DNA from: Minisyncoccota bacterium
GTDB lineage: Bacteria; Patescibacteriota; Minisyncoccia; JAHIHE01; JAGLIN01
DNA: 64,000 nucleotides
Assembly (NCBI GenBank): GCA_028690055.1
Contig: JAQVBZ010000002.1
Location: 29,978-93,977, forward strand
Direction of reading: 5' to 3'
Shown here: positions 5,202-53,566 of the stretch, in pieces
Layout of the letters: every line of letters begins with the position of its first letter
Numbering within the stretch: the first letter of the stretch is position 1
Program-made: the position numbers and the translations under genes
The notes under the pieces: model-generated
Database searches by the model: none
What the model was told of the DNA's origin: nothing
The model's input: only the letters and a program-made list of their open reading frames with translations

Positions 5202-6599
5202 TTATTGCTCGCTGTGCTGTACATCCATATCTACGAAGCTGGTGTATTCTTGTTTGAAGTAAAGCTGTATTTCTCCGATTGGTCCGTTGCGGTGTTTGGC
5301 GATAATGATGTCGGCGATGCCGGTTTTTTCTTCGCTTCGTTTGGCGCGGTCTTCACGGTAAATGAACATTACTACGTCCGCATCTTGTTCGATGGATCCA
5401 CTTTCTCGCAGGTCGGAGAGTTTCGGTTTCTGGTCATCGCGTGATTCGACTCCACGCGAAAGCTGGGAGAGGGCGATAATAGGGATACGCAGCTCTCTCG
5501 CCAGTCCTTTGAGGGAACGGGAAATCTCACTGACCACCTGTACGCGGTTTTCGATATTGGCGCGGCCTTCGATGAGCTGGAGGTAATCGATGACAAGAAG
5601 GCCTAACCCGTGTTCGGCTTGAAGACGTCGTGCCATAGTGCGCATTTCCATCACATTCAGCCCTGCGGTATCATCAATGAAGAGAGGCGCTTCGGAGAGG
5701 GTTCCGATGGCGTGGCCGATGCGCGAGAAATCGTCATTTTCTCCATTAGAGGAGAGGTTGCCGGTGCGCATCTTCCAGAGATCGACGTGCGCTTGAGAAC
5801 AGATAAGTCTGTCGATGACTTCACTTTTGGACATTTCCAGAGAGAAGATGCCGACTGGAACTTTATGTTTGACGGCAGCCTGACGGGCGATGTCCATTGC
5901 GAACGATGATTTACCCATACTAGGGCGCGCACCTAAGATAACAAGGTTGGATTCTTGCAATCCCGACAGTAGACTATCCAGATCCCGAAAACCTGTCGGT
6001 ACACCGCGTAGTTGGCCTTTGTTTTTACTGAGATCGTCAATGCGTTCGAAAGCTTCCTCCAACATCGGTTTGACGGCGGTGAAGTCTTGGCGGATATGCT
6101 TCTGGGAAACGGAGAATATTTTTTGCTCTGCCAGGTCAAGTACTTCGTCCACTTCATTCTTCTCATCGTAAGCATTGCCGATGATTTGTGAGGCGCTGTC
6201 GATTAGCTTACGCAATATCGCTTTTTTCTCCACAATCTTGGCGTAATGAACGATGTTGGCGGCGGTAGGTACGGTATTGGCAAGTGATGCCAGATAGCTA
6301 TGGCCGCCGATCCTTTCCAAATGGTCGGTTTCCTTGAGTCGATTGGAGAGGCTGAGGAGGTCGATCGGCTCGTGCTTTTCGTAAAGGTATAGCATAGCCT
6401 CGAAAATCTTATTGTGAGAGTCTTTGTAGAAATCTTCCGGTGTGATGAAATCGGCGATTTTGATGACGGCATTTTTGTCAATCATAAGCGATCCCAACAC
6501 TGATTGTTCCGCTTCCACGTTTTGCGGTGGCATCCGGTCGGTACTGTTGAATTCAGTCTTGAATTCGGTTTTAGGCTCAGTTTTCTTTTTCTTCTCCAT
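5202..6599 (-). CDS. dnaB: Replicative DNA helicase DnaB
   Basis: N-terminal PPQNVEAEQSVLGSLMID motif; Walker A GARPSMGKSSFAMD; RecA-like C-terminal domain. 465 aa. Confidence 0.95.
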   Translation of the reverse strand: MEKKKKTEPKTEFKTEFNSTDRMPPQNVEAEQSVLGSLMIDKNAVIKIADFITPEDFYKDSHNKIFEAMLYLYEKHEPIDLLSLSNRLKETDHLERIGGHSYLASLANTVPTAANIVHYAKIVEKKAILRKLIDSASQIIGNAYDEKNEVDEVLDLAEQKIFSVSQKHIRQDFTAVKPMLEEAFERIDDLSKNKGQLRGVPTGFRDLDSLLSGLQESNLVILGARPSMGKSSFAMDIARQAAVKHKVPVGIFSLEMSKSEVIDRLICSQAHVDLWKMRTGNLSSNGENDDFSRIGHAIGTLSEAPLFIDDTAGLNVMEMRTMARRLQAEHGLGLLVIDYLQLIEGRANIENRVQVVSEISRSLKGLARELRIPIIALSQLSRGVESRDDQKPKLSDLRESGSIEQDADVVMFIYREDRAKRSEEKTGIADIIIAKHRNGPIGEIQLYFKQEYTSFVDMDVQHSEQ

Positions 6600-6707: not shown

Positions 6708-6753
6708 CGTGTCATTCCGGAATTTTGATACTGCAAAATATCCGGAATCCCCG
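6708..6753. repeat. Family-2 palindromic unit (cGTGTCATTCCGGAA...TCCGGAATCCCcg)
   Basis: A 46-bp long hairpin; reverse complement of the unit at 7292..7334. Confidence 0.6.
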
Positions 6754-6828
6754 TGCCAAGCCGATAAAATGTTATAATTTTCGGGTAATCTGTGATAGGA
6801 TAAAAATATAATTATTTTTTATGATCTT

Positions 6829-7203
6829 ATGTATGAAGTTCCGCCTAGTTTTGAAAAAAAACCGGAGCATATTCCAACTTTGGAAGAGATAAAATGGGTA
6901 TTGGAAGAATTAATGAAAGGAGAAAATTACAGTGAAGTCCGTTGCCTTAAAGATTCAGAGGGTATATATCTATTTGAAGTTAAAACTCGTGATAAATTAA
7001 CTGGTGAAATATTAGTACATAGCTATACAAGAAAAGGGCATCGCGAGAACTTCCCTAAGAGTTCTGAAACGGGGGTAGATATAGTCTATTACAAAGATGA
7101 AGATGCTTACAAAAAAGAGGATGTTGAATACGCAGAAGTTTTGGCAAAATATGTTGATGAAAATTGGGAGCTTCAAGCTAATGGAAATTGGGAAGATCTT
7201 TAA
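6829..7203 (+). CDS. Hypothetical protein, 124 aa
   Basis: ORF from the track; no convincing RBS; no recognisable domain. Confidence 0.35.
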   Translation: MYEVPPSFEKKPEHIPTLEEIKWVLEELMKGENYSEVRCLKDSEGIYLFEVKTRDKLTGEILVHSYTRKGHRENFPKSSETGVDIVYYKDEDAYKKEDVEYAEVLAKYVDENWELQANGNWEDL

Positions 7204-7291
7204 AAAAAGACATATTTTTATTTTTAAAAAATCCAGTCAGTTCGTTTCATTCGTAATATTCTGATATTATAAAGATACAAGGCATAATTAC

Positions 7292-7334
7292 GGGATTCCG
7301 GATATTTCGCAGTAGCGAAATTTCGGAATGACAG
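7292..7334. repeat. Family-2 palindromic unit (GGGATTCCGGATATTTCGC-AGTA-GCGAAATTTCGGAATGACAG)
   Basis: Same unit at 33366 and 45176, with compensatory stem changes (TTCAGGA/TTCTGGAA versus TTCCGGA/TTTCGGAA). Confidence 0.6.
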
Positions 7335-21227: not shown

Positions 21228-21316
21228 GTGTCATTCTGAACGCAGTGTAACGGAGCGAATAATCCCGTCACTACGTGGGACATGGCGGGATTCTTCGGGG
21301 TACCTCAGAATGACAG
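21228..21316. repeat. Family-2 MITE-like element between the two permease genes (GTGTCATTCTGAA ... CCTCAGAATGACAG)
   Basis: TIRs plus an internal CCCGTCACTACGTGGGAC hairpin; the right half matches 47794..47836. Confidence 0.55.
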
Positions 21317-24781: not shown

Positions 24782-24871
24782 CGTGTCATCCTGAGGTAAG
24801 CACGAAGGATCCCGTTATGTCCCACATATTGACGGGATTCTTCGCTCCGCTCTGCTGCGCTCAGAATGACG
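24782..24871. repeat. Family-2 MITE-like element (cGTGTCATCCTGAGG ... GCTCAGAATGACg)
   Basis: TIRs and an internal ATCCCGT...GACGGGAT hairpin. Confidence 0.55.
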
Positions 24872-38342: not shown

Positions 38343-38431
38343 CGTGTCATCCTGAACTTGTTTCAGGATCTTTGTCCTATTAAGCATTAACGATATACAA
38401 TGAAGATTCCGGATTAAGTCCAGAATGACAT
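38343..38431. repeat. Family-2 MITE-like element; the left TIR GTGTCATCCTGAACTTGTTTCAGGATC is identical to the TIRs of the tandem elements at 51748..52172
   Basis: Left hairpin ATCCTGAA-cttgt-TTCAGGAT; right end CCAGAATGACAT. Confidence 0.6.
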
Positions 38432-45094: not shown

Positions 45095-45218
45095 CGTGTG
45101 TCATGCCGGGCTTGACCCGGTATCTTTGTTATATTCCGCTTTTACTCTGCTACAAAGCTTAATCGTTATACTTCGTAGATTCCGGATATTTCGCAGTAAC
45201 GAAATTCCGGAATGACAA
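45095..45218. repeat. Family-2 MITE-like element (cGTGTGTCATGCCGGGCTTGACCCGG ... GATTCCGGATATTTCGCAGTAACGAAATTCCGGAATGACAaat)
   Basis: Left hairpin CCGGG-cttga-CCCGG; the right end is the canonical family-2 unit. Confidence 0.55.
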
Positions 45219-45650
45219 ATATCGTGGATTTAGTGTTTAAGAAGAATTCTTCGAAATATTTTATACAAAAGCTGTCAGCGGATTAAGTAACTCATACAAG
45301 AATGACAAAAATGATGGTTTTATAGCGAGAAATACTATTCGGCAGGTTTGATAGAGCAGCTCCGATGTCGCGTATGACTCGAAAAAAGATTTAGAAAGCC
45401 GCTATGGCTTGACATAGTCCTATTTTGGAGTTATCTTGACTTTACAATCTTTTCGGTCATCTCTGTCACCTCTTTATATGCCAATAGAGGTGATGACGAG
45501 CGTGAAAAAAATGGAGAGGCGAAAAGATTGCAAAAATAAGCTGGATCAAAAAACGTCGAGCGGCTCGTTTGATAATGTTATCTGACAGCCGCTCTTATTC
45601 TTTATTGTTGACTAATTGTTCTTTTTCTTATAACATACAAAAGTAGCTCA

Positions 45651-47722: not shown

Positions 47723-47793
47723 CTGATTGGAATCTTTCATATCTGTTATGTGCTATCCCTGTACGTAGCGGAGTGAAGTGTCTTATTTTATTA

Positions 47794-47836
47794 CGCGGGA
47801 TATAACGGGACCCTTCGGGGTACCTCAGGATGACAG
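47794..47836. repeat. Family-2 half element (CGCGGGAT...GGGACCCTTCGGGGTACCTCAGGATGACAG)
   Basis: Matches the right end of 21228..21316. Confidence 0.5.
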
Positions 47837-51289: not shown

Positions 51290-51429
51290 TATTTTATTTT
51301 CTGCGAAACGACATCTTTCGTGTGTCATCCTTGTTTCAGGATCCTCGTTATAAAAAATAATAACTAGTAATGCGGGCTAGACTTTCTATTTAGTCTTTCT
51401 CGTATGTTTATTTGTTTAAATCATATAAT

Positions 51430-51714
51430 ATGGAAAAGACCTATTATATCTATATTATGACTAACGTTACCAACAATGCCCTGTATATCGGTGTCACTAA
51501 TAATCTACGAAGACGAGTCTACGAACACAAAAATAAACTAGTGGATGGTTTTTCTGCGCAATACAATCTTTGTAAGCTGGTTTATTATGAATCAACAAAC
51601 GATGTCCGTGCCGCCATTGAGAGAGAGAAACAACTGAAAAGATGGCATAGGGAGTGGAAGATGAACCTGATAAAGGAAAATAACCCTGAGTTTGATGATT
51701 TAAATATTAATTAG
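51430..51714 (+). CDS. GIY-YIG nuclease-domain protein (UPF0213 type)
   Basis: YYIYIMTNVTNNALYIGVTNNLRRRVYEHK is the GIY-YIG motif. The track start 51412 is a TTG; the ATG at 51430 is preferred. Confidence 0.8.
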   Translation: MEKTYYIYIMTNVTNNALYIGVTNNLRRRVYEHKNKLVDGFSAQYNLCKLVYYESTNDVRAAIEREKQLKRWHREWKMNLIKENNPEFDDLNIN

Positions 51715-51747
51715 TATCGTATCGTTTTGACCTTATTGAGTGTTTCA

Positions 51748-52172
51748 TGCTGAACTCGTTTCTGTATTTTTGTCATTCTGAACTTGTTTCAGAATCTTCT
51801 GTATCTTTCGCTTTGACTTTGTTTAATTCACTTCACTTAATATTACGCTTTTTAGAATAGCGTGGAATCATCCGTTTGATGCGGGATAGATATTTTTCGT
51901 GATAGATAATGAGGATCCTGAAACAAGTTCAGGATGACAAAGTAAAATAGTAAATTGCAGAAACTATTTCTCTTGTGATGTGTCATCCCGAATCTATTCC
52001 TGTATTTCTGTCATTCTGAACTTGTTTCAGAATCTTCTGCATATTTCGCTTTGACTTTATTAAATTCACTTCACTAAATATTACGCTTTTTAGAATAGCG
52101 TGAAATCTTCCATTCGATTCGGGATAAATACTTCCAGTTATATACATCAAGGATCCTGAAACAAGGATGACA
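51748..52172. repeat. Tandem duplication (2 x ~239 bp, about 85-90% identical) of a family-2 MITE; each unit has TIRs TGTCATTCTGAACTTGTTTCAGAATC / GATCCTGAAACAAG(TTCAG)GATGACA
   Basis: Unit 1 at 51748..51940 and unit 2 at 51987..52172, aligned by eye. Each contains hairpins ATTCTGAA-cttgt-TTCAGAAT and ACGCT...AGCGT. Confidence 0.75.
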
Positions 52173-52256
52173 AATTATCTTCTTCCTTGCTGAGAGTTAA
52201 GTTGCTCTATCAAAAAAACCGCCTTTCAGGCGGTTTTTATATTGTCCAAACGATTA

Positions 52257-52451
52257 TTACATCAAATCCTTGATATCTTTGCCCTGCTTGATAGCGGTGC
52301 TGATACACTTGGCACAGACCTTGATCTTTTGTCCATCGATGTTCTTAGTCTGGATATTGATTCTCTGGGTTCTCTTGGTTGCAATGTTGGAGTGGCTGCG
52401 GGATTGGCTGGATGTTGTGCCTCTCTTGCAAACTTGACATGTTCTGCTCAT
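52257..52451 (-). CDS. rpmB: 50S ribosomal protein L28
   Basis: MSRTCQVCKRGTTSSQSRSHSNIATKR matches the L28 N-terminus (MSRVCQVTGKRPxxGNNRSHAxNATKR). Confidence 0.9.
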   Translation of the reverse strand: MSRTCQVCKRGTTSSQSRSHSNIATKRTQRINIQTKNIDGQKIKVCAKCISTAIKQGKDIKDLM

Positions 52452-53181: not shown

Positions 53182-53566
53182 TACAGACACAGCAGGAGGC
53201 TTCGATTGATTCTTTGTTATTTCTGTGTAGGCGGGCGTCTATGGTTTATTCTTTAATTTTCTTAAAGAATAAAGCCTATATCTTTTCTATTTTATTAAAT
53301 CATTTCTCATTTTTCTTGTTTTTCTTATTCTAGATTCCCGCCTGCGCGGGAATGACATAAGCTATAATTGCATAATGAGGGGGGGGTAAGTTTTTGGCAA
53401 CCTAAAGAGGTGTCTTAACCGCTAATTTTACGCGTTCTTGACATCATTCAGCCTTTCTGCTAGTCTGATAACAAGGAAAAACTCGTTAATAGCTATACTC
53501 ACATGGGTCTGCTAACCCTTGTGTGATTTTGTTTCGTTAGTGTTTTTTAAGTAATCAAAAACAAGA

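Follow-up and report, generated by a model that had tools for sequence, protein, structure and literature searches.

What connects a pair of closely similar repeats to the small nuclease gene that precedes it? This question is raised by a 64,000-nt stretch of DNA from a Minisyncoccota bacterium (GCA_028690055.1, contig JAQVBZ010000002.1), analyzed here at its full length and referred to as the window, in which two repeat copies lie between a gene for a 94-amino-acid GIY-YIG protein and the ribosomal protein gene rpmB (Table 1). A preliminary description, made from the sequence without database searches, had presented the pair as a tandem duplication of a ~239-bp miniature inverted-repeat transposable element (MITE), and had suggested a functional link to the GIY-YIG gene, possibly as a transposase. 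Our analysis leads to a different identification. We consider it likely that this is an ssn locus, encoding an endonuclease specific for single-stranded DNA (ssDNA), that the supposed terminal inverted repeats are its cognate hairpins, resembling the repeats termed SRM and NTS, and that the pair is a local duplication of a hairpin doublet.

The GIY-YIG protein and the hairpins around its gene

The GIY-YIG gene is single-copy in the window, and its product matches the Pfam family GIY-YIG only. We found 47% identity (E 2e-31) between this protein and the 94-amino-acid SsnA orthologue of Neisseria gonorrhoeae, translated from locus L094. The SsnA of N. meningitidis is likewise a 94-amino-acid single-domain GIY-YIG protein (cd10448), and mutation of its residues Y6, Y17 and E64 abolishes cleavage (Chenal et al. 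2025, Nat Commun 16:2388, PMC11893778). These three positions align gap-free with Y8, Y19 and E66 of the window protein, and Y19, R29 and E66 are invariant across 40 homologues. By sequence, the closest solved structure is that of the distant UPF0213 protein BH0048 (1zg2, E 0.005). The assignment to Ssn is thus based on the Pfam match, the identity to the SsnA orthologue, the aligned catalytic residues and the association with hairpins described below. Several metagenomes and a "Candidatus Pacebacteria" metagenome-assembled genome encode an identical protein, its gene being arranged locally as in the window.

The properties of this family were established by Chenal et al., who characterized Ssn proteins as ssDNA-specific endonucleases with SRM/NTS hairpins (PMC11893778). 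SsnA binds the oriented NTS repeat (CGTCATTCCCGCGMAVGCGGGAATCYRG) only as ssDNA and cleaves a few nucleotides 5' of it, with the three bases 5' of the palindrome (GTC) controlling cutting and the C after the palindrome controlling binding (PMC11893778). The enzyme leaves the reverse strand, double-stranded DNA and RNA intact, does not bind RNA, and reduces the integration of NTS-bearing transforming DNA (PMC11893778).

At the window locus, the hairpin has the form TGTC-ATCCTGAA-CTTGT-TTCAGGAT-C, comprising an unpaired tag, a stem of 8 bp opening with AT, a loop of 5 nt and, directly following the stem, a C; the tail reads CTT or CCT. Its conserved tag and tail positions match the mutational map of the NTS (PMC11893778), as well as the description of the CGTC-tagged repetitive extragenic palindromes (REPs) given by Di Nocera, De Gregorio and Rocco (2013, BMC Genomics 14:522, PMC3733652). 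The latter, which include Neisseria dRS3 and Rickettsia RPE-4 and RPE-6, are tagged with CGTC or TGTC, fold into stems of 8-9 bp that open with AT and enclose loops of 4-5 nt, end in a 3-nt tail, occur mostly as head-to-head dimers and, as their authors stated, have no dedicated transposase (PMC3733652). The window hairpins agree with them in tag, stem, loop, head-to-head arrangement and intergenic position, but differ in the tail (CTT/CCT versus the usual CCA), and the 2013 catalogue was compiled without genomes of the candidate phyla radiation (CPR).

These hairpins flank the window ssn gene in inverted orientation, with a forward copy at 51323-51345 and inverted copies at 51914-51939 and 52150-52172, and they extend well beyond the locus. 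For TGTCATYCT, a short string spanning the tag and part of the stem, the window has 13 occurrences versus 0.9 expected, and the 26-mer hairpin pattern has 4 matches versus 0 in 100 shuffles. A structure-based scan recovered several sequence types of tagged hairpin, all of them intergenic, and at least six such types are present alongside the single ssn gene in 64 kb. Head-to-head pairs are formed at 51771/51939, 52009/52172 and 38345/38430.

The repeat pair itself contains a direct repeat of 84% identity (51741-51927 versus 51979-52165) with a start-to-start distance of 238 bp, and a MAFFT alignment widens the homology to about 51741-51944 and 51979-52177, corresponding to ~200 bp per copy. 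In these respects the preliminary description was accurate: two adjacent units do align along their whole length, the terminal sequences it gave are present (51771-51796 and 52009-52034 on the plus strand, 51914-51939 and the 5-nt-deleted 52150-52172 on the minus strand), further copies exist at 38345-38370 (exact) and 51323-51345, each displaced by 2-4 nt from its first placement, and a GIY-YIG gene lies immediately upstream. Because the 34-nt stretch between the copies (about 51945-51978) has no counterpart beyond copy 2, and because Tandem Repeats Finder called no array for the pair, "two adjacent ~200-bp copies" is a more exact description than "239-bp tandem unit".

Each copy is composed of four elements, namely a decayed forward hairpin, an intact forward hairpin, a spacer of ~116 bp and an inverted hairpin. 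The intact forward hairpins of the two copies are identical at 26/26 positions. In copy 1, the inverted hairpin pairs with 51769-51809 (41 nt, 85%), and the copy as a whole folds back on itself as one extended DNA hairpin (regional z = -5.7), as would be expected of a head-to-head REP doublet. The hairpin upstream of ssn is a 100% reverse complement of the one that closes copy 2 and shares its 5-nt deletion, so that one deleted variant brackets the entire block from the upstream side of the gene to the end of copy 2. In addition, inverted repeat I4 (95%) links the subterminal extension of the upstream hairpin to the inner flank of 51914-51939.

Table 1. Positions of the ssn gene, the repeat pair, neighboring features and further tagged hairpins in the window.
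Feature	Coordinates	Strand	Sequence and remarks
ssn gene, 94-aa single-domain GIY-YIG nuclease (Ssn family)	51430-51714	+	Pfam PF01541, E 9e-18
Upstream tagged hairpin (SRM) of ssn	51323-51345	+	TGTCATCCTTGTTTCAGGATCC; 5-nt-deleted, 5-bp stem, 84 nt before start codon
Decayed forward hairpin, left edge of copy 1	51743-51770	+	TTTCATGCTGAACTCGTTTCTGTATTTT; stem complementarity lost; 19/28 positions shared with copy 2 counterpart
Intact forward hairpin, copy 1	51771-51796	+	TGTCATTCTGAACTTGTTTCAGAATC; TGTC tag, 8-bp stem ATTCTGAA/TTCAGAAT, 5-nt loop, C tail
Spacer (core), copy 1	51797-51913	.	Unique sequence; 82% identity to copy 2 spacer
Inverted hairpin closing copy 1	51914-51939	-	TGTCATCCTGAACTTGTTTCAGGATC; plus strand reads GATCCTGAAACAAGTTCAGGATGACA
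Linker between copies	51945-51978	.	From MAFFT alignment
Decayed forward hairpin, left edge of copy 2	51981-52008	+	TGTCATCCCGAATCTATTCCTGTATTTC
Intact forward hairpin, copy 2	52009-52034	+	TGTCATTCTGAACTTGTTTCAGAATC
Spacer (core), copy 2	52035-52149	.	From copy-to-copy alignment
Inverted hairpin closing copy 2	52150-52172	-	5-nt deletion, as in 51323-51345
GC-rich hairpin with adjoining runs of A and T, directly after rpmB	52209-52238	.	Weak Rfam terminator-like matches
rpmB (ribosomal protein L28), flanking gene	52257-52451	-	Pfam PF00830 Ribosomal_L28; TIGR00009
Separate head-to-head doublet, 86 bp	38345-38430	.	Forward type-A hairpin 38345-38370 (+, exact copy); different inverted hairpin 38405-38430 (-); unrelated 35-nt spacer
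NTS-like hairpin	53330-53357	-	TGTCATTCCCGCGCAGGCGGGAATCTAG; between M50 peptidase gene and rpsL
Tagged hairpin	45100-45123	+	Structure-based scan
Long-loop tagged hairpin	45179-45216	-	Structure-based scan
Long-loop tagged hairpin	6711-6748	+	TGTCATTCCGGAATTTTGATACTGCAAAATATCCGGAATCCC; left flank of 124-aa open reading frame
Inverted relative of long-loop hairpin	7295-7332	-	Right flank of 124-aa open reading frame

Association of ssn homologues with tagged hairpins across phyla

The association between gene and hairpin was evaluated in 80 loci from GTDB genomes encoding proteins 52-67% identical to the window protein. The sample covers Melainabacteria, Cloacimonadota, Saccharibacteria and other CPR bacteria, Atribacterota, Proteobacteria, Bacteroidota, Chloroflexota, Clostridia and others. 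Under a relaxed rule (GTC tag and a stem of at least 5 bp, within 120 nt of the gene), a forward tagged hairpin was found upstream of the start in 57/79 loci and an inverted tagged hairpin downstream of the stop in 54/78, while hairpins occupied both ends in 38/77 loci and at least one end in 70/77. The expectation per side was ~1.5 loci from the local background and ~1 from shuffled flanks, and correctly oriented hairpins are enriched ~40-fold at both gene ends. With a stricter rule, the median hairpin distances were 22 nt upstream and 9 nt downstream. Inspection by eye showed, in most loci, a forward TGTCAT-stem-loop-stem-ATC 10-45 nt before the start codon and an inverted (G)GAT-stem-loop-stem-ATGACA 0-30 nt after the stop. 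Our frequencies of 72% (upstream), 69% (downstream) and 49% (both) agree with those of Chenal et al. 2025, in which 71% of the homologous genes had at least one SRM nearby and 42% had an SRM on both sides (PMC11893778).

These counts decide whether the gene and the repeats are neighbors by coincidence. The window offers some ground for that suspicion, with one GIY-YIG gene set against hairpins at eight or more other intergenic sites that have no nuclease gene nearby. The ~40-fold enrichment in the 80 loci, together with the published association and specific cleavage (PMC11893778), refutes a chance adjacency, to which we assign practically no probability. The preliminary description had proposed examining whether GIY-YIG homologues elsewhere flank such elements; they do, at 70 of the 77 loci, and the functional link it had put forward is now borne out by co-occurrence across phyla and by the published Ssn experiments (PMC11893778).

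Across the loci, the GTC tag does not vary, nor do the AT with which the stem opens, the C-G pair at its fourth position and the C that follows it. Elsewhere in the stem, both arms change from lineage to lineage, and since the hairpin set was selected for complementarity, these compensatory changes serve as description only. Proteins whose genes share a hairpin class were on average 61.3% identical, compared with 57.6% across classes (0/2000 permutations); related genomes in the sample inflate this result, which is no more than suggestive of co-variation between protein and hairpin.

A compact canonical form of the arrangement is found at locus L092, which comes from the same sample set and carries an 80%-identical ssn and the same hairpin as the repeat pair. 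Its cassette, TGTCATCCTGAACTTGTTTCAGGATC - open reading frame (ORF) - GATCCTGAAACAAGTTCAGGATGACA, spans 381 bp (1608-1988, TGTCAT through ATGACA) between a prepilin peptidase gene and ligA. The annotated start codon of ligA (1983) is the ATG contained in the right-hand tag GGATGACA, and under this annotation the hairpin and the first bases of an essential gene overlap. The ssn loci that we saw in N. gonorrhoeae, S. meliloti and Azospirillum lipoferum belong to genera or species listed by Di Nocera et al. as hosts of CGTC-tagged REPs. Those of S. meliloti and A. lipoferum conform to expectation, with inverted hairpins on either side of the gene; at the N. gonorrhoeae locus, NTS copies lie on both sides and the nearest ones are oppositely oriented. 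Some of the records searched are filed as plasmids but have the size of chromosomes (N. gonorrhoeae, 2.17 Mb; S. meliloti 'pSymB', 3.72 Mb; A. caviae, 4.94 Mb; NZ_CP119140.1, CP090106.1, NZ_AP026896.1), and in the gonococcal plasmid-filed records the ssnA orthologue carries no annotated feature.

From four characterized homologues, we infer that the window protein performs strand-specific cleavage, limited to ssDNA, on the 5' side of the tag. By analogy with the Neisseria and Wolbachia enzymes, the hairpin would extrude when the DNA becomes single-stranded, as might be the case for incoming transforming DNA and possibly for replication or repair intermediates. The protein would then bind only the strand that reads 5'-GTC-hairpin-C and cut it a few nucleotides 5' of the tag, and would presumably, again by homology, have no action on double-stranded DNA or RNA. 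As a head-to-head doublet presents one forward hairpin on each strand, the predicted cuts fall just outside each of its ends, on opposite strands.

Origin of the repeat pair and possible mobility of the cassette

Outside the hairpins, the two copies are identical in 114/144 columns, indicating that they share ancestry along their length. The two intact hairpins are identical between copies in 48/48 columns apart from the 5-nt deletion (Fisher p = 1.2e-4), and this combination of identical hairpins with a diverged remainder points to constraint or homogenization acting on the hairpins. The ~116-bp core has no other match in the 64-kb window, and its conserved 22-mer matched only this locus in the metagenomes of the Joint Genome Institute (JGI), a collection that includes a sample with this organism. 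Given that the core is found nowhere else in either search, local duplication of a head-to-head hairpin doublet is the simplest reading of the pair and, as far as the alignments indicate, the most likely one. Such a duplication could have occurred by unequal exchange or template switching between direct hairpin copies, after which the hairpins would have remained unchanged while the remainder diverged by ~20%. Two other sources can be set aside. The spacer as a decayed ssn gene was rejected, as tblastn at E <= 10 returned no second ssn match in 51715-52213, and an origin of ssn from a phage homing endonuclease is unsupported, no homologue having been found in phage records.

The ~200-bp unit is not supported as a MITE, contrary to the preliminary description. 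Only the ~26-nt hairpins are dispersed, the core is unique, and no target-site duplication was found at 51771-51939 (flanks TATTTT and AAGTAA), 52009-52172 (TATTTC and AATTAT) or 38345-38430 (AACCG and TATAG). At 38345-38430, the same hairpin is combined with another spacer and another partner, so that the recurring unit is the hairpin and not a composite element. The units do share with bacterial MITEs such as Correia, RUP and Nezha a small size, a non-coding and AT-rich sequence, an intergenic position, inverted ends and the capacity to fold, but they differ in having no target-site duplication and no internal sequence common to dispersed copies, and in having ends that are self-complementary hairpins instead of the ends of a known insertion sequence.

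The cassette of hairpin, ssn and hairpin shows presence/absence variation in other genomes. In A. lipoferum 4B, a ~550-bp block consisting of hairpin doublet, ssn and hairpin doublet (L096, 1370-1986) is located within the suf operon, separating sufB from sufC, whereas in A. ramasamyi and A. sp. B510 (L098, L099) the flanks are 95-96% identical and the sufB-sufC spacer is hairpin-free and 91-129 bp long. At this site the cassette shows a clear-cut presence/absence polymorphism. Only ~1 kb, at 83-94% identity, is shared by two Gastranaerophilales genomes (L008/L010, about 5281-6341); it contains ssn, a tRNA and a hairpin doublet, and on the downstream side the two cease to match after the final base of the hairpin tag (...CATGACAG). 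At the window locus, the empty-site comparison proposed in the preliminary description gave no such clear case. There, the related contigs L088 and L089, which encode an identical L28 and have neither ssn nor the doublets, align only up to window 52213-52215; as their other flank differs too, the end of homology at 52213 is a synteny break and not a clean empty site. The conserved synteny of ssn between species of Arenibacter and of Kordiimonas weighs against frequent movement, as does the absence of ssn from phage records. These cases are compatible with gain or loss of the cassette, but they do not distinguish insertion from deletion or from recombination at the hairpins.

A stronger form of mobility would be that the ~200-bp units are true non-autonomous transposons, analogues of MITEs or of the REP doublets known as REPINs, with the GIY-YIG protein as their transposase, and that they were inserted twice side by side. 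The inverted hairpin ends, the folding of copy 1 as one long hairpin and the unduplicated linker are all in keeping with this, and so are the indel between sufB and sufC and the end of L008-L010 homology at the outer end of the downstream hairpin. The hairpin-ssn-hairpin layout also resembles an insertion sequence or a REP-associated tyrosine transposase (RAYT) gene, a likeness that the Ssn authors themselves remarked on for NTS-ssnA-NTS, with no mobility demonstrated (PMC11893778). Opposed to it are the core that recurs in neither the window nor the JGI 22-mer search, the missing target-site duplications, the doublet at 38345-38430 with its unrelated spacer and different partner, and the synteny of ssn in Arenibacter and Kordiimonas. 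GIY-YIG enzymes are hydrolases that form no covalent intermediate and are not known to transfer strands, which counts further against a transposase. The characterized Ssn proteins are ssDNA endonucleases for which no transposase activity has been demonstrated (PMC11893778), and the transposase role considered in the preliminary description is thus not upheld. Overall, we regard insertion of the units as transposons as unlikely.

The REP/REPIN-RAYT systems offer a further comparison. There, too, a nuclease gene in one or a few copies is flanked by inverted tagged hairpins that are recognized in ssDNA, many other hairpin copies exist, often as inverted doublets folding as one long hairpin, and the enzyme gene is often kept syntenic between species. 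However, the enzymes have unrelated folds, an HUH protein (IS200/IS605-like, with a covalent tyrosine intermediate) versus a GIY-YIG hydrolase, the tag is GTAG versus GTC here, and mobility has been demonstrated for REPINs but not for SRMs. The resemblance is one of architecture only, and the locus is not a member of the REPIN-RAYT class. We tentatively note the idea that the 381-bp cassette is an autonomous mobile element driven by a GIY-YIG ssDNA nuclease, with the doublets as non-autonomous, REPIN-like derivatives; we view it as possible but doubtful. The sufB-sufC indel in Azospirillum, the end of Gastranaerophilales homology at the hairpin and the lack of the cassette in relatives with an identical L28 are all compatible with it. 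If true, no smaller insertion-sequence-like element would be known, and by its mechanism the cassette would represent a new class.

The hairpins might instead act in RNA, as a terminator, a stabilizer or a small RNA for ssn or rpmB, in which case the duplication would be regulatory and unrelated to nuclease activity. They can also be folded as RNA, the region lies between convergent genes, and REP-type elements elsewhere stabilize mRNA 3' ends (PMC3733652). Nevertheless, Rfam searches of the window, of the region at permissive thresholds and of 12 related loci returned only tRNAs besides chance-level matches to long-hairpin miRNA models, with no family matching the hairpins and no sign of a COG2827 RNA motif. 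No T-tract follows the hairpins, the terminator scan was empty, and rpmB has a hairpin of its own at 52209-52238, which by its sequence is probably the rpmB terminator; the simple scan did not call this one either. SsnA does not bind RNA (PMC11893778), and the orientation-specific GTC tag is kept on both sides of ssn in many phyla, indicating a DNA-strand signal. We therefore judge an RNA-level function to be very unlikely as the explanation of the pair.

Several observations fit less well with an ssn locus whose hairpin doublet was locally duplicated, and count against our interpretation. The nearest downstream inverted hairpin is 200 nt from the ssn stop, versus the usual 0-30 nt, and the first motifs past the stop are forward-oriented, making the local arrangement atypical. 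The window contains no competence genes, and housekeeping genes are present. As the 34-nt linker is not duplicated, two separate insertions of one doublet are possible. Furthermore, the hairpins of the repeat pair, here called CCTGAAC-type, fail the published degenerate SRM pattern, HGTCWYN(0-2)YYVSBRHN(0-5)WNVSBRGN(0-2)RNCYNB, which has one match in the window (53330-53357) versus a mean of 0.22 in 100 dinucleotide shuffles. The CCTGAAC-type hairpin flanks about 20 of the 80 homologous genes; because it does so and retains the functionally mapped positions (GTC tag, C following the palindrome), it behaves as an SRM outside the published pattern.

Further hairpins in the window and significance of the locus

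The one hairpin that matches the published SRM pattern is identical at 27/28 positions to a gonococcal NTS copy adjoining ssnA in locus L094. It fits the NTS consensus except for the first base, and such a near-canonical Neisseria-type repeat is striking in a CPR genome. Another hairpin type forms doublets of ~87 bp at 21229-21315, 24784-24871 and about 47760-47835, located between housekeeping genes; their ends read TGTCATYCTGA...TCAGRATGAC(A/G), with inner pairing GAATCCCGTC/GACGGGATTC, and the third doublet is without a clear left end. Three differing tagged hairpins are clustered in 45100-45310, two of them listed in Table 1 and the third a solitary ...GAATGACA end at 45299-45307. This cluster adjoins, on the upstream side, a run of three tRNA genes (45651, 46347, 47570).

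Between dnaB and cysS, at 6710-7333, lies a second hairpin-bracketed cassette, built around an orphan 124-amino-acid ORF (6829-7203, plus strand). The ORF has no Pfam match and just 5 homologues in 5.8 billion proteins. The arrangement resembles the 'NTS-gene-NTS' configuration of Neisseria.

The association of Ssn proteins with their hairpins was already published and experimentally characterized in 2025 (PMC11893778), and the gain provided here is incremental. The window locus is like the known systems in its 94-amino-acid single-domain GIY-YIG protein, in the inverted hairpins with GTC tag and C tail that bracket the gene, and in the many further intergenic hairpin copies. It differs from them in several ways: its host is a member of the Pacebacteria (CPR/Patescibacteria), a group unmentioned in that study (PMC11893778); its dominant hairpin is AT-rich and missed by the published SRM pattern; at least six hairpin sequence types accompany its one ssn gene within 64 kb; and a duplicated 200-bp doublet takes the place of a single hairpin downstream of ssn.

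The locus therefore extends the host range of the Ssn/hairpin system to a CPR (Pacebacteria) genome, which fits the tendency of hairpin-rich genomes to be those of symbionts (PMC11893778). The AT-rich CCTGAAC-type hairpin, though invisible to the published pattern, flanks ssn in Melainabacteria, CPR bacteria, Proteobacteria and other groups among the 80 loci, so that surveys using the pattern will undercount. The presence/absence cases bear on whether the cassette moves. The analysis also ties the Ssn work to the older literature on CGTC-tagged REPs, which reported no associated enzyme gene, and adds a candidate pair of enzyme and site to the ssDNA-cutting toolbox proposed by the Ssn authors.

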